Source: an archaeon (lineage in GTDB: Archaea > Iainarchaeota > Iainarchaeia > Iainarchaeales > CSSED10-239). From it: a stretch of DNA of 32,000 nucleotides. The stretch spans positions 1 to 32,000 of the forward strand of contig DAOOUC010000003.1 in the NCBI GenBank assembly GCA_035390665.1, given 5' to 3'. Position numbers and translations under genes: made by a program. The notes below the pieces were generated by a model. That model saw only the letters and a list, made by a program, of their open reading frames with translations, was not told the DNA's origin and made no database searches. This document shows positions 1,818 through 26,117 of the stretch, piece after piece (within the stretch, counting starts at the first letter, position 1; the number at the start of each line of letters is the position of its first letter).

Positions 1818-2247
1818 CTATAGTGAAACTAAAGAAATTTCAAGTGGAATAGTTAATTCAATTATAAGAGTTATTAAAAAAACAATTATCTTTGGAATAA
1901 TTATTCCCTTTGTTATCTATATCTTTATAAGATTTCTAGAAATAGCTTTTGGATATTCTTGGCAACAACAATTAACCTTTCAATATATTGCTTATATTTA
2001 TGTTGTTGGCTATGTTGCTTTTCTTGTATATATGTCAGTAAAAAGTCAGATTCACTCTACTCTTTATTATTCTATTGGATGGTTGCTTGGATTATTATTA
2101 CTCTATAGATTCGGGATATTTCAATGGGAACAATTTAAAGACCTTTTAATTGCCCCGATTATTTTTGTTATATTAAAGATTGCTTATCTTTTTTTTAGAA
2201 AACCAAGAAAATTAGAACAAAGAAAAACCAAAACCTCTAGAGTGTAA
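1801..2247 (+). CDS. small integral membrane protein (about 4 predicted TM helices), function unknown
   Basis: ORF overlaps the DAC gene by 17 nt, suggesting co-translation. Hydrophobic helices include IIFGIIIPFVIYIFIRFL, IAYIYVVGYVAFLVYM, IGWLLGLLLLY and LIAPIIFVILKIAYLFF. Confidence 0.5.
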   Translation: MLKESNYSETKEISSGIVNSIIRVIKKTIIFGIIIPFVIYIFIRFLEIAFGYSWQQQLTFQYIAYIYVVGYVAFLVYMSVKSQIHSTLYYSIGWLLGLLLLYRFGIFQWEQFKDLLIAPIIFVILKIAYLFFRKPRKLEQRKTKTSRV

Positions 2248-4227
2248 TCTTATATATCTCTTTAATCTGTTTTGGCTAATTCCTGAATCTTCTAAATCTT
2301 TATAAGTATATCCTGCTTTAACTAATTGATCTAAACTATACCCTGCTTTGTATAATTCTTTTGCTGGAAAACCAATTGTTTTAAGTTCTTTAGCAGAATA
2401 TCTTATTATTCTTAATTGTCTTGCAGAACAACCTATTTTCCAAACATCTTTTGCTGGAAATCCTGCATAAGATAATTCTCTTGCTGAAAATCCAACAGCA
2501 TAAAGTTCGGATGCTAAAAAACCTGCATCTCTTAATGATGCTGCATCAAATCTTGCTGATTTTAATTCTTGTGCAGAGTATGCTTTTTTAAGATCATAAG
2601 CACTATATCCTGCTGCTCTCATTTCTTTAGCAGTGTACCCTGCATTTTTAAGATCTGTAACATCAATATCAAGATCATTAAGTTCCTTAGCAGTATATCC
2701 TGCATCTCTTATTGTCTTAAGATCAAAACCTGCAAAATATAATTCTCTTGCAGAAAAACCAAGATTGTGAAATTGTCTTGCAGAATAACCTATACCTAAT
2801 AATTCTTTAGCATTGAAATCTGCTTCTCTTAAATCATATAAACTATAACCTGCTAAATGAATCTCTACTGCTGAAAATCCTGCTTCTTTTAATTCTTTAA
2901 CAGTATATCCTTTTGATATAAATTCAGGTAAGCCACAACCAATAAGTCTTACTTCATGTAATGGACAACCAGCATTCATTAATTGAACACAAGAAAGTCC
3001 AGCATTAGATAATTCTCTTGTTGTATAGCCAGCAAAATAAAGCTCTTGTGGAGAATACCCAAAATTAAGAAGCTCTCTTGCAGAATAATTAAGATATCTT
3101 AATTCTTCTAAATTAAATTCTTTTTTCTTTTCTTCTAAGGTTAAAATATCCATTAAATCAAAGATTTCTTTAAGCTTATATCCTGCTTCTTTTATTTCTT
3201 TAATTGAATATCCTGCTTTATACATGTCTCTTGCAGAAATTCCTGCGTCTCTAAATTGAGTTGCAGTAACTCCAACTGCTGATAATTCTTTAATTCTAAA
3301 TCCTTCTTTTAAAAGATCTGCAATTGTTATTCCTTCTTCTAAAAGTTGTTTAATGTCTATTTTTTCTTTATCTATTAAATCAACTAAAGTATATCCTATT
3401 TCACAAAGTTCTTTAATTGTGAATGCTTTTTTTAAATCTTCTAAAGTATATCCTGCATCAATTAATTCCTTTGGTGTATATCCTGCAATCTTTAATTTCT
3501 TTACAGGAAATTCAAGAGAATGTAATTCCTTTGCATCATATTTAGCATAAGCAACAACGTCTTCACTAAATTTTACTTTTAATAAATCTCTTGCTGAATA
3601 TCCCAGATCTTTTAATTCTTTTGCTGAATATCCTGCTAATTTTAATTCCTTTAATGAAAATTTTGCATTATGTAAATCTAAAGCACTAAAGCCTAATGTA
3701 AAAAGATATTTTGCTCCGAATTTCATTCTTTTAAGTCTTGTAGCATTGTATTTTCTTTGTTTTAGCTTTGTAGAATTATATCCTAATAATAACATTTTTT
3801 TTGATGGTGTTTTTTTTTTTAATAATTGCGGTAAACTTATTTGTTTTATTTTTTTCTTAACTGATTTTTTTGCTTTTTTCTTAGCTACTTTTTTTATATT
3901 TTTCTTTGACTTTGCTGGTTTTTTCTTTGGTTTTTGTTTTTCTGTTTTTTTCTGTAAAGGGTTTATTGTGTATCCTAGTTCTTTAATTTCTGTGTCTGTA
4001 AATCCAGAGTCTAATAGGTCCTTTAATGTATATTTTAATCCAAGATAAATTGTTTTATTTGCATTAACTTTCTTTAAGTCTTTTGAATAACTTTTGTAAT
4101 CTATTTTTCTTTTCCTTAACAAACTTAAATCCACAGGAGAAATTATAAATCTCTTTGGAGAATTAAGTTGTTTGTTTAATAATTCAATTACTTCTTTTTT
4201 TTTAAGTGTTTGAGTTATCTTTTTCAT
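2212..4227 (-). CDS. large tandem-repeat protein (~48 x 10-aa units, consensus about G-[YF]-[ST]-A-[KR]-E-L-x-x-A) with lysine-rich linker; function unknown
   Basis: 671-aa uninterrupted ORF. Residues ~170-660 are back-to-back 10-residue units, e.g. AGYSAKELKD LGYSARDLLK ... AGFSARELSY AGFPAKDVWK. A K-rich tract KKKPAKSKKNIKKVAKKKAKKSVKKK is present. No signal peptide or TM segment. Confidence 0.8.
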   Translation of the reverse strand: MKKITQTLKKKEVIELLNKQLNSPKRFIISPVDLSLLRKRKIDYKSYSKDLKKVNANKTIYLGLKYTLKDLLDSGFTDTEIKELGYTINPLQKKTEKQKPKKKPAKSKKNIKKVAKKKAKKSVKKKIKQISLPQLLKKKTPSKKMLLLGYNSTKLKQRKYNATRLKRMKFGAKYLFTLGFSALDLHNAKFSLKELKLAGYSAKELKDLGYSARDLLKVKFSEDVVAYAKYDAKELHSLEFPVKKLKIAGYTPKELIDAGYTLEDLKKAFTIKELCEIGYTLVDLIDKEKIDIKQLLEEGITIADLLKEGFRIKELSAVGVTATQFRDAGISARDMYKAGYSIKEIKEAGYKLKEIFDLMDILTLEEKKKEFNLEELRYLNYSARELLNFGYSPQELYFAGYTTRELSNAGLSCVQLMNAGCPLHEVRLIGCGLPEFISKGYTVKELKEAGFSAVEIHLAGYSLYDLREADFNAKELLGIGYSARQFHNLGFSARELYFAGFDLKTIRDAGYTAKELNDLDIDVTDLKNAGYTAKEMRAAGYSAYDLKKAYSAQELKSARFDAASLRDAGFLASELYAVGFSARELSYAGFPAKDVWKIGCSARQLRIIRYSAKELKTIGFPAKELYKAGYSLDQLVKAGYTYKDLEDSGISQNRLKRYIRLHSRGFGFSLF
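2250..3720 (-). repeat. 30-bp-periodic, diverged coding tandem repeat inside the 671-aa ORF
   Basis: The plus strand shows a recurring ...tatatcctgc / aaaacctgc / aaatcctgc... every ~30 nt. This corresponds to the (A)GY/GF codons of the 10-aa unit. Copies are diverged, not identical. Confidence 0.8.
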
Positions 4228-7687: not shown

Positions 7688-10279
7688 TTATTTTCCAGCC
7701 CAAGCATAGGTATCTGCGAGATATCCGGTCATTGCAGTGACATAAGAGTCTCTACCATTCCAACTTTTAGAAACTGCAGAAAATGTTTTATTACGATATA
7801 AATTTGGACTATATGTGGTTCCTTTTGTTAAATTCAAGTATGTTGCTTCAATTCCTTGTTCAAGTGTTGGATATCTACAATAATTGCCGGTATCTACTCC
7901 ACCACACCTACATGCAGAAATTCCGCTTATATCGTTATTGTTTATCATTGTTGTGGTAACACTTGAAGAATTTTGATTAAACATTGATCTTTCTGCTTTA
8001 AAAAAGGAAAGAACAAATACTGGATCTATATCATATAACAATCCTAAATTATAAAATGCTGGTGAAGCATCTTTTACTTTTTGTGGTATATTTGTTCCAG
8101 ATCTATTAAATGCAGTTCTTATTTGAGCAATAGTTAAACTAGGATCATCATCTGTTCCTGTATTTGTTGTTGGTAAAACTATACTACTCATTGTTCTTTT
8201 ACCACTAAATTGTTGTTTTGTTATCCCAATTCCACCTTCTTGTCTTATTTTTGCTAAAGTAGTTGGATTACTTGTATAACAACCATCTGTTCCTTTTTCT
8301 AAAGTTGTTGATTGTGTTTGTGCAGGAGGATTTTCTATTGTTGGTGGTTGAACAACAGGTTGTGTTGGTGTTACTGGTTCTACAGCTTTTCCTGTTAATC
8401 CTTCAAAAATCTTAGGATCAAAATCCCATCTGCCGTATTTTAGACAACTTACTGTAGAATTACAATTATGTCCTTTACAATAGAAATTTACAATATTTCT
8501 ATTAATTATACAAAAATTATATTGAGATAATTCTTTATTATCTAAAACATATAAATTAGCATAAGATAAATTTACTTTAGAATTATCTTCTGATTTTTGC
8601 ATAAGAATAATTACTAAATTATTTTTTGTGTTTTGACTCTTAATATTTAGTTTTATATTTTTATTATTATTGTTTAATATATATTTTAATTGCTTAAAAC
8701 CTGTAAATGTGCCATCTATGTTAAATATATTTGTTGTTTGATCAACATAATTATTACTAAAAACACCTGTTTGATATATGTTTTGTAATTCTGTGTCTAT
8801 TTCTGTTTTCTTATCTGTTGTTGCAATTATAGCATAAACTGTTCCTTCTCTAAACATACTTAAATCAATACTTAAACTCTTATCTTGAGTTTTATTATTT
8901 AATAAGAACTCTTTTGGAATATCCATTTTATTAACCATATACCAATTAGTATTATTTAATGAAAAATTAATATCTGAAATATTTTTTTCAATATCATTAA
9001 CGATATTTAATGTTGCTACCGGAGTTGAAGATGTTTGAGTACTAGAATCTGTTGTTTGAGTAATAGATGAACAAACAGTTAATTTAAACTGTTCGGAATT
9101 ATTTTCAAAAGCAATAATATCTGAAATAATTACTGCATCATTAATAATAGAACAAGATTGATATTTAGGAATGGATCCTTCAATTACACATTTGAATTTT
9201 TTATTAGGATATAATTCATAAGTTATATTATAATCTGATGAACACTCAGATGCAGCAACTTGTTGAGATTCAGAACCTCCTCCAGTATCTGTATTTTGTG
9301 CTGAAGTTGTTCCTGAGCCACTGTTTGTGTTTGTTGTTCCAGCATTAGGACAGATTTCTCTTTTTAAATCAGGATAATTTGTTAAATTTAAAGTAAATCC
9401 TGATTTTTGACCATTAAATGGATTACATCTATCTGCCATTGCACCAGAATCATTACACTTATAACAAACTTGCCCTTTACTTAATGATTGACCACCTACT
9501 GTTACAGCAGATGTTGGATAAGTTGTAGATTTAGTGTATCCTGAACATTTTGTAGAACAATCTACTGGATTTGCTGCTGCATTATTGCCTGAAACAGGAA
9601 CATCATATGCGTAATCTAAATTATAAATCCAATTATTTGAACTTATTAAAGGTATAGATGTATATCCACTTGGGGCCAAATCTGTTTGAAACCAAGTATC
9701 TAATTTCCCATTTATTAATTTACAACTAAATGTATCATCTTGACTACCTTGCAGAAACATTCCACTCAATTGCTGTGGTTTAAATATTACGACATCTATT
9801 TTTGGACTATTACAAATTGAGGGTTTACTTATAAACAATTTAATTGTTTTAGAATTTGGTGTTGAAGGAGAATATGCCATAATTGTATCGGTACCTACGT
9901 CAACACCTTTTCCTGCTTTCCCTGCTCCCCCCGCATATATTGCATCCATATAATATAGTCCAGATCTATATAAATCTCGATTAGTAACAATATTCGCTGC
10001 AGGACTTGGAGAAATTAAAACACCCATACCGAAGGATTTATCTGTAGTATAGGTATAAGAATTAGTAGTAATTAAAATTACCCCACAAACACCTCTTTCT
10101 GTAACTTCTGGATATTTACTTGCTTTTAAATCTAATATTTTTATATCTCTTACATCTGTTCTACAAACTGGATTTTTTGTTATTGTGGATTTAATACCTG
10201 TAATAGCAAAAACACCATTGCTTATAAAAAGTACACAAATTAATATTATAAAAATTGAAATTAGATTTTTTTTGTTCAT
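7688..10279 (-). CDS. large secreted Cys-rich protein with Thr/Ser/Pro-rich linkers; C-terminal ~190 aa weakly resembles a glucosaminidase/lysozyme-like (muramidase-fold) domain
   Basis: N-terminal signal/anchor LISIFIILICVLFISNGVFA. Low-complexity linkers TTNTNSGSGTTSAQNTDTGGGSES, TQTTDSSTQTSSTP and EPVTPTQPVVQPPTIENPPAQTQ. The C-terminus reads DIDPVFVLSFFKAERSMF...NNNDISGI...YCRYPTLEQGIEATYLNL, which parallels glucosaminidase-family blocks. The domain call rests on by-eye similarity only. Confidence 0.45.
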   Translation of the reverse strand: MNKKNLISIFIILICVLFISNGVFAITGIKSTITKNPVCRTDVRDIKILDLKASKYPEVTERGVCGVILITTNSYTYTTDKSFGMGVLISPSPAANIVTNRDLYRSGLYYMDAIYAGGAGKAGKGVDVGTDTIMAYSPSTPNSKTIKLFISKPSICNSPKIDVVIFKPQQLSGMFLQGSQDDTFSCKLINGKLDTWFQTDLAPSGYTSIPLISSNNWIYNLDYAYDVPVSGNNAAANPVDCSTKCSGYTKSTTYPTSAVTVGGQSLSKGQVCYKCNDSGAMADRCNPFNGQKSGFTLNLTNYPDLKREICPNAGTTNTNSGSGTTSAQNTDTGGGSESQQVAASECSSDYNITYELYPNKKFKCVIEGSIPKYQSCSIINDAVIISDIIAFENNSEQFKLTVCSSITQTTDSSTQTSSTPVATLNIVNDIEKNISDINFSLNNTNWYMVNKMDIPKEFLLNNKTQDKSLSIDLSMFREGTVYAIIATTDKKTEIDTELQNIYQTGVFSNNYVDQTTNIFNIDGTFTGFKQLKYILNNNNKNIKLNIKSQNTKNNLVIILMQKSEDNSKVNLSYANLYVLDNKELSQYNFCIINRNIVNFYCKGHNCNSTVSCLKYGRWDFDPKIFEGLTGKAVEPVTPTQPVVQPPTIENPPAQTQSTTLEKGTDGCYTSNPTTLAKIRQEGGIGITKQQFSGKRTMSSIVLPTTNTGTDDDPSLTIAQIRTAFNRSGTNIPQKVKDASPAFYNLGLLYDIDPVFVLSFFKAERSMFNQNSSSVTTTMINNNDISGISACRCGGVDTGNYCRYPTLEQGIEATYLNLTKGTTYSPNLYRNKTFSAVSKSWNGRDSYVTAMTGYLADTYAWAGK

Positions 10280-23807: not shown

Positions 23808-23982
23808 TTATTATTTTATATTGTCCAATATTTCTCACAGGTTTTTTTGTGTGCGTTTATTAGTCCTGTCTGAGAAAATAGGTGTTTATTATTTCTATAG
23901 GCAAAAAAAAATAATTTGTCCAATTGTGTGTGTGTTGTCCAAGAAATTGTGAGATAAACAAAAAGATAAAAATATAAAAAAA

Positions 23983-25392
23983 TTAATCAAGAGGAATAAC
24001 GCATCTAAACCCAATCGAATCTGATTTATAACTTGGCGCCCATCTTAAATTCATTGCAAAAACACCTGATGCATTTTCATCAAAATGTGTTCCACCCCTT
24101 ACTATTGCGTGAACATTTGAATTATATGCAAGTCCTGAATTTGCTTGTCCTGGAGCAATATAAATTTTTCCAACACCTTGTTCTGAATCATAATCATTAA
24201 ATGGTTTTATTTGACTATATGTTAAAGAACCCGATCTTGCCAAATTTGTAAATTCATACCAATCTCTTTCAAATAAATCTTCAAATCCTGGAGATCCATG
24301 CTGTACACCGCCACTATCATTTCCTTTATTATTTAAATCAGGATAATCCTCGCAGGTTCCATCACAACTTTCTATAATTGTTAAATCTACCCATTCTGCT
24401 AAATTTCCAGAGAAATCCCATATTTCTTCGCCATTAGATAAAACTAACTTAGCAAGTTCATTTCTATTATCTCCATAATCAATTAAACCCTTTAAATAGG
24501 ATGCAGAACTATCTATTCCTACATTTCCTTTTTTTAATGACCCTATTCCTGTTATTCCGCTATCCCAATTAGTTGAAACTTGTTCAATATTTCTTGCAAT
24601 TGTCATCCATTCATCATTTGTTATTAAATGTGCACCAGAATTCTCACAAATTTTTTTTACTGCACATAAATTTAAAATGGTTTCTGGAGGATCAGAAATT
24701 TTGTTTTCTAAAACCGCCATTGAACCATTAATTTCATTTCCTTCTTCACACATTCCATCAGAAATATATCCATCATTTATTCTAGCTTCATATTTTTGAA
24801 CACAAAATTCAGAAGTATTATAATTTGGATTCCCTGGAACTGTAATATATCCATCTGGACAGCTTGTTGTTACTATTTCAGGATTATAACTTTCACAATA
24901 TCTAAAATCAAAATCTTGTGAATTAACTTTTAATTCTATATATTTATTCTCAATGGTATATAAATTTAAAATAAAAGAACTTGATGGAAAACAAGCAATT
25001 GGAATTATAGTCAAATCTCCGCTATTTATTTCAATTTGTGGATTTAATGCAATTCTTTTTGTAAGATATTTAGCATCCTGCAATTGATTATCAACTATAG
25101 TATATCCTTTAATAACTAAATCTTTTGTACTTGTATTTTGAATTAAAACAGATCTATTTATTGCTTTTTTTACAAATATAAATCCTGTTATATCATCTTT
25201 TTCTGCTATTATATCTTTAGATGAAGACAATGTTGTATTTGTAAAATTTGTTCCCCAATTTATTATTATAGTAACTATAACTACACAAATTACTACAAGT
25301 AAAATAATTGCAATAATAGGAGATATTGCTTTTTCTTTTGTTCTCATATCTTTCTTTCTTTTTTTATTTAATTTATTTTTTTTTAAATTCAT
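23983..25392 (-). CDS. surface protein: archaeal type IV pilin-like (class III) signal peptide plus C-terminal FGE-sulfatase/SUMF1-type domain
   Basis: The N-terminus has a basic stretch followed by KEKAISPIIAIILLVVICVVIVTII (Pilin_N pattern A-[IV]-SP-[IV]-I). The C-terminus reads HLITNDEWMTIARN, SGNLAEWV, VRGGTHFD, SIGFRCV, typical of the FGE-sulfatase fold. Confidence 0.7.
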   Translation of the reverse strand: MNLKKNKLNKKRKKDMRTKEKAISPIIAIILLVVICVVIVTIIINWGTNFTNTTLSSSKDIIAEKDDITGFIFVKKAINRSVLIQNTSTKDLVIKGYTIVDNQLQDAKYLTKRIALNPQIEINSGDLTIIPIACFPSSSFILNLYTIENKYIELKVNSQDFDFRYCESYNPEIVTTSCPDGYITVPGNPNYNTSEFCVQKYEARINDGYISDGMCEEGNEINGSMAVLENKISDPPETILNLCAVKKICENSGAHLITNDEWMTIARNIEQVSTNWDSGITGIGSLKKGNVGIDSSASYLKGLIDYGDNRNELAKLVLSNGEEIWDFSGNLAEWVDLTIIESCDGTCEDYPDLNNKGNDSGGVQHGSPGFEDLFERDWYEFTNLARSGSLTYSQIKPFNDYDSEQGVGKIYIAPGQANSGLAYNSNVHAIVRGGTHFDENASGVFAMNLRWAPSYKSDSIGFRCVIPLD

Positions 25393-25415
25393 TTAAATTA
25401 CCTTAAAATAAAAAA

Positions 25416-25644
25416 TAGAGCTGACGGGATTCGAACCCGCAAAACAAGAAATAAATTAACCATGATAACGCACCCTTTCGGAATGCACGACCAACATAAG
25501 TTAGGATCACTACCTACTCCCTACAATTACTTGCAAAGAGAACACCCAAAGGGCTTATACTCCTTCGTTTTTTACATCATCTTCAATTTATTTCCATAAA
25601 CTGGCTTCGGAGACCAGTGTTTCTTCCAACGAAACTTCAGCTCC
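25416..25644 (-). tRNA. tRNA-Arg(CCG) gene carrying a ~155-nt insertion (putative non-canonical intron) between the anticodon stem and the T stem
   Basis: The minus strand reads GGAGCTG AA GTTT CGTTGGAAG AAAC A CTGGT CTCCGAA GCCAG [160 nt, 25441..25600] GCGGG TTCGAAT CCCGT CAGCTCT A. The acceptor has 7 bp (G1.U72 wobble). The T arm is textbook (G53 T54 T55 C56 ... C61). The anticodon loop has U33 and anticodon CCG. CCA is not encoded. Caveat: A8 and C14 replace the usual U8/A14. Confidence 0.75.
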
Positions 25645-25663
25645 TATATAAAATGTAATTAAT

Positions 25664-25671
25664 TATCTAAA
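25664..25671 (-). promoter_or_regulatory. TATA-box-like TTTAGATA about 20-27 nt upstream of the tRNA 5' end
   Basis: The minus strand reads ...GCTTTAGATAATTAATTACATTTTATATA|GGAGCTG. The position fits archaeal TATA-to-TSS spacing. It overlaps the 3' end of the upstream 110-aa ORF. Confidence 0.35.
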
Positions 25672-25673
25672 GC

Positions 25674-26006
25674 TCACCGGGGACTAATTTCTTCTATTTC
25701 ATCTTCTAAAATATTTAATGATTCAAAAATATAATTGTCTTCTGTTATTTCATCAAAATAAATTGTATCATCAATTTGTAATTCATTTATTGTAATGCTA
25801 TCATTTACTATTTTTGCTTTTTCAAACCTATCTGAAGAATTGTTTACAGAATTATCTGTTTTTTGATTATTTAAAACAATAGTTCTGAAATCAATATTTT
25901 TGGATAAAAATAAAAGCATAACGAGAAATAAAAAAATCACAGCAGTAATTTGCTCTTTTTTATTCTGATATTTTCTATATCTTTGTCTATTTATTTTTAT
26001 ATTCAT
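25674..26006 (-). CDS. hypothetical single-pass membrane protein with acidic C-terminal region
   Basis: 110-aa ORF with a basic N-terminus, the TM segment ITAVIFLFLVMLLFL, and a D/E/N-rich tail. A promoter-like module lies upstream. Confidence 0.5.
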   Translation of the reverse strand: MNIKINRQRYRKYQNKKEQITAVIFLFLVMLLFLSKNIDFRTIVLNNQKTDNSVNNSSDRFEKAKIVNDSITINELQIDDTIYFDEITEDNYIFESLNILEDEIEEISPR

Positions 26007-26056
26007 ATTCTGTCTTATTTCTCTAATTATCTAAATTAATAAGTTCAAAAGGTTTA

Positions 26057-26083
26057 AATATATATGTTAAAGATATATAAAAA
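26057..26083 (-). promoter_or_regulatory. promoter-like module (minus strand TTTTTATATATCTTTAACATATATATT), copy 2 of 2
   Basis: TTTATATA starts ~75 nt upstream of the ATG at 26006. It shares TTTATATATCTTT...CATATATAT with 23778..23807. Confidence 0.4.
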
Positions 26084-26117
26084 TTAATAAAAAAATAGAA
26101 AAGAATTATTCTTCGAT

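Follow-up and report, generated by a model that had tools for sequence, protein, structure and literature searches.

A tRNA-Arg(CCG) gene of an AT-rich archaeon with a covarying folded insert between the anticodon and T stems, tentatively read as an unusually large intron

The stretch of archaeal DNA considered here (contig DAOOUC010000003.1, positions 1 to 32,000; all 32,000 nt are referred to as the window) harbors on its minus strand, between two open reading frames of the same strand (ORF110 and ORF469), a gene for tRNA-Arg with the anticodon CCG in which an insert of 160 nt (25600..25441) lies between the anticodon stem and the T stem. The arms, the anticodon and the 160-nt insert in the variable region had been described in an earlier reading of the letters without database searches (the sequence-only reading), and the description was borne out upon rereading of the sequence and by the Rfam tRNA model (RF00005), whose end-to-end alignment (model positions 1-71) assigned all of the insert to the variable region. 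Read on the minus strand, the acceptor is GGAGCTG/CAGCTCT, the D arm GTTT(C)-...-(G)AAAC, the anticodon arm CTGGT-CTCCGAA-GCCAG and the T arm GCGGG-TTCGAAT-CCCGT; CCA is not encoded at the 3' end. G18G19, the T-loop sequence UUCRAAU, a 7-bp acceptor, D and anticodon arms and a 5-bp T arm together make this a cloverleaf, and the features of arginine identity (A20, C35, G36, and A73) are present. The Rfam score of 28.1 bits (E = 7.5e-4) fell below the gathering score of 29 because of the penalty for a 157-nt insertion. The scans with Rfam and ARAGORN that the sequence-only reading had proposed gave a divided answer: Rfam held no family for the insert, and ARAGORN did not call the native, unspliced gene, calling tRNA-Arg(CCG) once a loop of 4 to 7 nt, of any sequence, stood in for the insert. 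The 229-nt RNA folded as a cloverleaf plus an insert domain at -72.5 kcal/mol (z = -4.5), and none of 200 shuffled sequences folded as well. Of the core nucleotides, A8 and C14 had already been flagged as atypical; they were present in every orthologue together with G21, the canonical U8, A14, and A21 being absent, and C14 can pair with G21 to give a D stem of 5 bp. No other tRNA that could serve as a comparison for this core was found in ~150 kb of related loci. Coordinates are collected in Table 1.

Table 1. Features of the tRNA-Arg(CCG) gene, its insert and the surrounding cassette (positions in the window)
Feature	Coordinates	Strand	Basis or remark
Whole tRNA-Arg(CCG) gene including insert, 229 nt	25416..25644	minus	Rfam tRNA model, fold, orthologues
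5' exon: acceptor 5' strand, A8 A9, D arm, anticodon arm	25601..25644	minus	sequence
Anticodon CCG	25610..25608	minus	sequence
5' tether UUUAU	25596..25600	minus	UUUA invariant in all orthologues (alignment)
P1 stalk, 5' strand GGAAAUAAAUUGA	25583..25595	minus	13 bp with 25447..25459
Invariant 5' motif AGAUGAUGU	25574..25582	minus	identical in all six orthologues
Variable interior, 107 nt, multi-hairpin	25467..25573	minus	hairpin covariation, window versus L027
Invariant 3' motif AUCAURGUU	25458..25466	minus	R is G in five, A in L008; rest identical
P1 stalk, 3' strand UUAAUUUAUUUCU	25447..25459	minus	pairs with 25583..25595
3' tether UGUUUU	25441..25446	minus	G-N-U-U before T stem conserved
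3' exon: T arm, acceptor 3' strand, discriminator A at 25416	25416..25440	minus	sequence
Invariant GC-rich 15-mer AGTCCCCGGTGAGCT	25671..25685	minus	end of ORF110: AGT CCC CGG TGA
Strain-variable cassette, ~2.1 kb: ORF110, tRNA, ORF469	~23948..26085	minus	presence/absence in relatives
ORF110	26006..25674	minus	
ORF469	25392..23983	minus	archaeal pilin-type signal; FGE-sulfatase-like C-terminus (Pfam)

Orthologous versions were retrieved via the neighboring proteins. All belong to one narrow clade and provide six usable sequences with three independent interiors. Locus L003 has the same sequence as the window, and L027 belongs to the group with 95% EF-2 identity; L025, L028/L029, and L026 (5'-truncated by a contig end) were reached through neighboring open reading frames; L008, which is the same as L013 and L022, stems from a metagenome-assembled genome (MAG), "archaeon isolate SO_2017_LW1_34," with an EF-2 that is 92% identical; L030 is a fragment. 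In the window and in five other versions (L008, L025, L026, L027, and L028), the insert was kept at the same site, with a length of 154 to 170 nt. The sequence-only reading had named the lack of an insert, or of any conservation of its structure, at orthologous loci as what would speak against it; insert and layout were both kept, and the layout covaried.

The insert is joined to the tRNA by tethers of 4 to 7 nt, and U44 and U45 are conserved. The perfect 10-bp helix previously noted at its ends was confirmed and extends, with G-U pairs, to a 13-bp stalk (P1; 25595..25583 with 25459..25447) that measured 12 to 13 bp across versions. P1 is followed by a 2-by-2 internal loop of purines, AG opposite RG, and by a 5-bp helix (P2, AUGAU/AUCAU), which had been pointed out as well. 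The internal loop and P2 lie within the two invariant 9-mers: in AGAUGAUGU, A1 and G2 lie in the internal loop, AUGAU is the 5' strand of P2, and G8 and U9 stand at the inner junction, and in AUCAURGUU, AUCAU is the 3' strand of P2, RG lies in the internal loop, and UU forms the first pairs of P1. Over the six sequences, P1 and P2 were 96% paired, with 4 pairs changed on both sides, so that the covariation among orthologues proposed as a check was indeed found; the covariation of the whole structure was matched by 1 of 500 shuffles, and all slid controls scored far lower.

Inside this conserved base, the interior (102 to 118 nt across versions) occurs in three mutually unalignable versions, one in the window and L027, one in L025, L028, and L026, and one in L008. 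The interior of the window forms the hairpins GCCC-UUU-GGGU (25554..25544), a 10-bp GUAA hairpin (25540..25517), which the sequence-only reading had not listed, and the GAAA hairpin (25486..25470), which it had. Between the window and L027, 3 of the 34 interior pairs had compensatory changes, 4 had one-sided changes, and none was broken; between L025 and L026, the respective numbers were 2, 4, and 0 of 21. Folding z-scores of the interiors were negative throughout (-1.3 to -3.6), and GNRA hairpins were present in the window, L027, and L008 and not in L025 or L026. The G+C content of the insert was 36% versus ~27% for the genome, and every version of the interior was richer in G+C than the genome. 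The earlier view of the insert as a folded RNA domain and not AT-rich filler is upheld by this G+C content, by the negative z-scores and by the covariation of the hairpins. In every orthologue, the minimum free energy (MFE) structure contained an intact cloverleaf plus P1 and P2; as modeled, the insert is thus a domain that folds apart from the cloverleaf and does not disrupt it. As judged from the comparison of versions, selection maintains a folded domain of a certain size, without a conserved core, and the lack of such a core in the interior argues against a ribozyme or an aptamer.

Two additional pairing possibilities were observed at the base of the insert. The 5' tether and the first half of P1 (25587-25600, minus strand) can form a weak alternative hairpin, UUUAY-GNRA-RUAAA, in which a U-A pair is replaced by C-G in L025 and L028. 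This hairpin, absent from L008, may exist transiently during transcription. The sequence U-R-G-U-U of the 3' motif (25458-25462) is complementary to nucleotides 38-42 of the anticodon arm (25602-25606, minus strand); this pairing was 100% kept with one compensatory change, and it was equaled by 75 of 500 shuffles. The variable R of the 3' motif (G to A in L008) fits the C41U change in L008, which is a single event.

The exons were much more constrained than their surroundings. Their 72 nt vary only at D-loop position 17 (U/C), at T-loop position 57 (G/A), and in the anticodon stem, which is CUGGU/GCCAG in the window and CUAAC/GUUAG in L008, with the loop CUCCGAA unchanged. The L008 stem differs by two compensatory pairs (G29-C41 and G30-C40 to A-U) and by one change of G-U to C-G, and all tRNA arms were 100% paired in the six orthologues. 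Over the same distance, from the window to L008, protein identity was 32% for ORF110, 57% for ORF469, and 62% for the DXR-like protein. Because the exons are nearly invariant beside an ORF110 that is only 32% identical, and because the anticodon stem is compensated, we read tRNA-Arg(CCG) as a functional, selectively maintained gene and not as a pseudogene, and the option of a disrupted pseudo-tRNA was dropped.

We assessed whether the insert belongs to a known class of RNA or of mobile DNA. Rfam searches of the window and four orthologous loci, at the gathering and at E-value thresholds, returned only the tRNA itself plus noise (snoR35, E = 7). In L008, the interior (L008:8706-8793) gave a weak full-length match to c-di-GMP-I-UAU (19.1 bits versus a gathering score of 65.9; E = 0.15), which is probably due to chance and driven by GNRA hairpins. 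A box C/D small RNA (sRNA) or kink-turn was considered and rejected: a C-box-like AUGAUGU is present, but no insert contains CUGA (the D box), and no kink-turn is possible, because RG and not GA stands opposite AUGAUGU. A GAAA 11-nt receptor (UAUGG/CCUAAC in the window) was dropped since it is not conserved. A coding function was rejected as well; AUGAUGUAA reads Met-Met-stop in the window, reading frames are not conserved, and an antisense frame of 48 codons exists only in the window's version. A self-splicing or self-cleaving RNA, such as a small ribozyme or a miniature intron resembling group I, is very improbable. The GNRA tetraloops of the insert, set in structured RNA in the window, L027, and L008, and its strong folding z-scores would suit one, yet no Rfam family reached even a weak score on any orthologue, and the known cores of group I and group II would not fit into an interior of 102 to 118 nt. 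Ribozyme cores are conserved, whereas here close lineages have different interiors, and L025 and L026 have no GNRA loops.

Equally improbable is a tRNA gene killed by the insertion of a mobile element, of the type of a miniature inverted-repeat transposable element with terminal inverted repeats. The insert does end in inverted repeats of 10 to 13 bp, the tRNA is missing in some strains, and its codon is almost unused. An element of this kind is expected to have siblings and to leave traces, and neither was seen: the insert was single-copy in everything searched, which comprised the window, ~150 kb of related loci, and collections of metagenomes, genomes, viruses, phages, and plasmids, and no target-site duplication was found, the flanks UUUAU and UGUUUU not being a duplication. 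In addition, the insertion site is the same in lineages down to 92% EF-2 identity, and the exons are under strong purifying and compensatory selection. As for the individual searches, the metagenome scan with AGATGATGTAAAA...GGTTCRAATCC gave one real match, identical to L008, and seven that were ordinary tRNAs downstream of chance matches; the genome-collection scan with the D-arm pattern gave the L008 MAG only, the other four matches being due to chance; viral-collection scans with three patterns gave nothing real; and BLAST of the insert against phages and plasmids gave no match.

The codon read by this tRNA is close to absent from the host. Among the ~9,600 codons of the window were 298 AGA codons and a single CGG, at 25679..25677, where it is the last codon of ORF110 before the stop. 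Across ~31,000 codons of the clade, with eight related loci covered (L001, L006, L007, L008, L017, L025, L027, and L028), CGG was found only as the last codon of ORF110 orthologues and always beside tRNA-Arg(CCG); loci without the tRNA and its flanking genes had no CGG codon in the regions seen. A nearly unassigned CGG is well described for low-GC genomes (PMC8629427). The codon is part of the GC-rich 15-mer AGTCCCCGGTGAGCT, which was identical in the window, L008 (8618-8632), L025, L027, and L028 and had one change in L030, and which lies 25 to 26 nt upstream of the 5' end of the tRNA (26 in the window; 30 in L030). With ORF110 itself only 32% identical between the window and L008, the constraint on the 15-mer acts on nucleotides, and since its synonymous positions are frozen and its codons are GC-rich and rare, it is probably also a nucleic acid signal. 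Such a signal may be a promoter or a processing element. In Nanoarchaeum, leaderless tRNA transcription begins at a fixed distance from the promoter, and this spacing makes a promoter-type element plausible at AGTCCCCGGTGAGCT. By its sequence, CCC-CGG might also allow +1 slippage ahead of a hungry codon.

ORF110, the tRNA and ORF469 form a cassette that was found in the window, L003, L004, L008, and L027. It was missing from the interval between EF-2 and the DXR-like protein in L001/L002 (EF-2 100% identical), L006 (98%), L007 (94%), and L017 (80%), with L001:8199-8591 as the empty-site comparison interval. The block is thus a presence/absence polymorphism among strains with identical EF-2, patchy among relatives at 80 to 98% EF-2 identity, and the tRNA with its insert is dispensable at the strain level. 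No direct repeats and no integrase were found at the cassette boundaries. Locus L028 combines an upstream open reading frame and an insert of the L025 type with a downstream gene that is 98.7% identical to that of L026 and 82.6% identical to that of L025, a mosaic that points to a crossover close to the 3' exon of the tRNA, by homologous recombination. Strain-level "module swapping" within the insert, considered for L026 versus L028, was discarded, ordinary recombination near the 3' exon being a sufficient explanation. Assemblies break at the tRNA or its insert in three independent cases (L004 ends at the equivalent of ~25552 in the window, L026 begins in the D arm, and L030 ends at the start of P1), which suggests strain-level heterogeneity or assembly difficulty.

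The G+C content of the window ranges from 22 to 32%. Immediately upstream of the tRNA and on the same strand lie genes for RpoA subunits, an L7Ae-family protein, S12, S7, and EF-2, and the best named relatives of EF-2 were found in "Candidatus Ainarchaeum" and Diapherotrites MAGs. The low G+C content, the archaeal gene neighbors and the EF-2 relatives together identify the host as an AT-rich DPANN archaeon, a small archaeon of the symbiotic type. Elsewhere in the window, a minus-strand open reading frame of 863 aa (7688-10279) had no Pfam match, and a 671-aa protein (2212-4227, minus strand) consists almost wholly of decapeptide repeats (PF25296, E = 1.6e-129).

Our preferred reading, to which we give a probability of roughly 0.4, is that the insert is an unusually large intron of the archaeal type in the 45/46 region, removed at a relaxed motif. 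A splicing endonuclease and an RNA ligase would take it out of the pre-tRNA, cleavage would occur at a relaxed (hBH- or bulge-helix-loop-like) site and not at a strict bulge-helix-bulge (BHB), and the splice site would be supplied by the invariant 9-mers and the tethers. Splicing would yield a tRNA reading CGG and, from the insert, a structured RNA that is stable and perhaps circular. The open reading frames of the window that were scanned contained no EndA or RtcB domain. The reading draws on the combination of a conserved base and a freely varying interior, as the literature describes for archaeal tRNA introns, and on a known intron site in a DPANN context. Position 45/46 is a listed site of noncanonical archaeal tRNA introns (PMC4090602), the insert lies in the region of positions 44 to 48, and its removal restores a normal tRNA, as the ARAGORN calls with short loops indicate. 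In DPANN, loops of the endonucleases have been associated with relaxed specificity and with a large number of disrupted tRNA genes yet to be identified (PMC5829648), and broad-specificity endonucleases cleave relaxed motifs with bulges of 1 to 4 nt or with one bulge missing (PMC3239211). Removal is also favored because arginine is a class I isotype, and a tRNA with its cognate CGG codon next to it must work on the ribosome, which is easier without a 160-nt appendage.

Several observations weigh against an intron. In the archaeal motif, each strand has a 4-bp helix and then, on its 3' side, a 3-nt bulge that is cut after the second bulge nucleotide (PMC4090602). An exhaustive scan of four orthologues, with the geometry checked against that source, found no strict 3-4-3 motif (hBHBh') at positions conserved among them, in agreement with the sequence-only reading, in which no clean BHB had been seen by eye. 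Two relaxed candidates were found, and neither is convincing. The one based on P2 (candidate a, hBH) has UGAU/AUCA as H, U-R-G as 3-nt 3' bulge, GA/UU as h, and G-U-N as 5' site; its nucleotides are precisely the 9+9 invariant ones, the cloverleaf stays intact at 7 to 9 kcal/mol above the MFE, and the 13-bp stalk P1 would remain in the tRNA as a variable arm of ~45 nt. The one at the base of P1 (candidate b, HBh') has P1 as h', a bulge U-A|N, and a 3-bp H in which A43 G44 U45 pair with G-U-U from the 3' tether; the resulting variable loop would have 3 to 4 nt, at the price of having three of four central pairs, of opening two pairs of the anticodon stem and of lying 11 to 13 kcal/mol above the MFE. 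Matches of this quality are frequent by chance in this U/G/A-rich sequence. In addition, archaeal tRNA introns of 11 to 129 nt have been reported (PMC4090602), a range that the insert exceeds at 154 to 170 nt, and no intron-less allele was present among the versions seen. Mere excision does not call for a stalk that is long and covaries, for a length that varies by no more than 16 nt or for compensated hairpins in the interior. The atypical core (A8, C14-G21) occurs together with the insert in all orthologues.

The main rival reading, somewhat less probable than an intron, is that the insert is never removed. The gene would then specify a tRNA-Arg(CCG) with a folded domain of ~155 nt, borne on a 13-bp stalk at the position of a class II arm, or else the tRNA body would scaffold an inserted RNA; the domain might be a protein-binding handle, with the invariant loop and P2 as its module, or a steric gate, or the tRNA might act as a scaffold for processing or stability. 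Consistent with retention, the MFE structure of every orthologue keeps the cloverleaf beside P1 and P2, the short tethers leave the core where a class II arm does, with U44 U45 and G-N-U-U conserved, the stalk covaries over its 13 bp, the insert holds its size, the interior hairpins covary, and all orthologues lack U8-A14 and have the extended D stem. Translational activity is preserved in engineered tRNAs whose long variable arm bears hairpin aptamers (PMC7590224), a clumsy tRNA costs little where CGG is virtually unused, and no splice motif is convincing. Retention is made harder to accept by the size, since class II arms range from a little more than 10 nt to a few tens of nucleotides (PMC7609411) and 155 nt is several times any known arm, by the class I isotype, by the need for the ribosome and EF1A to accept such an arm, and by an interior that has neither sequence nor architecture in common across three lineages, which is odd for a functional payload. 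A more specific proposal, that a tRNA retaining its insert exists solely for the single CGG ending ORF110, as a private codon-tRNA pair in a strain-variable surface-protein cassette and perhaps as a translational gate or stall device, must be called doubtful. A role without decoding is improbable. The tRNA would in that case be a tRNA-like cis element of an ORF110-tRNA-ORF469 transcript, serving as RNase P/RNase Z punctuation or in regulation, with the insert as a stabilizing or regulatory domain. It does lie 29 nt past the stop codon of ORF110 and 23 nt before the start of ORF469 on the same strand, the three are gained and lost together, the invariant 15-mer overlaps the ORF110 stop, and the pairing of URGUU with nucleotides 38-42, with an R that covaries with C41U in L008, hints at a possible switch. 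Punctuation, however, needs no invariant CUCCGAA loop, no arginine identity features and no compensated anticodon stem, and a pairing that depends on one event and is equaled as often by shuffled sequences is of a kind expected by chance. Of the three options left by the sequence-only reading, the pseudo-tRNA was thus rejected, and a large intron and an RNA element hosted in a tRNA both remain under consideration.

If the insert is an intron, it would widen the size range known for archaeal tRNA introns and the rules for their structure, and it would be a concrete case of the disrupted and so far unidentified tRNA genes that are suspected in DPANN archaea, one that standard finders miss; a stable excised RNA with a conserved, protein-binding-like module would be predicted. 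If it is retained, no natural appendage of a tRNA as large as this would be known, and it would be a natural counterpart of engineered tRNA scaffolds, and only then would it be categorically new. Under either reading, a dispensable tRNA(CCG) and an only CGG codon in one accessory cassette amount to a natural, nearly unassigned codon in a low-GC archaeon. A nearly unassigned codon is the situation thought to precede codon reassignment.

Among known systems, the noncanonical archaeal tRNA introns, such as those at 45/46 in Thermoproteales and at 59/60 in ARMAN-2, share with the insert an archaeal host, a break outside the anticodon loop (here in the 45/46 region), a conserved junction module with a free interior, and a DPANN context of relaxed specificity. 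They differ in that the present insert has no strict BHB and weak relaxed candidates, measures 154 to 170 nt versus 11 to 129 nt, and has a covarying stalk of 13 bp, 9-mers fixed in sequence, and an interior selected for structure. The class II variable arm (of Leu, Ser, bacterial Tyr, and Sec tRNAs and of allo-tRNAs) likewise is a stem-loop that leaves the core between positions 45 and 46, and the core described here, without U8-A14 and with an extended D stem, is reminiscent of tRNA-Sec. Arginine, however, is a class I isotype, the acceptor and T arms are a normal 7/5 here, the domain is severalfold longer than class II arms (roughly 10 to 25 nt), and its tethers measure 4 to 7 nt versus 1 to 2 nt. 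The euryarchaeal tRNA-Trp intron with its box C/D sRNA also is a large intron with a structured RNA, and AUGAUGU resembles the C box RUGAUGA, whereas the present insert has no D box (CUGA), has RG instead of GA, is not at 37/38, and has an unconserved interior. Engineered tRNA scaffolds and aptamer-tagged tRNAs carry a foreign folded RNA on a tRNA arm, and versions tagged on the variable arm translate (PMC7590224), but these are artificial, small hairpins, whereas the graft here is natural, ~155 nt long and variable. In its presumed working, the insert comes closest to a noncanonical archaeal tRNA intron, and its likeness to a class II arm is one of position only.

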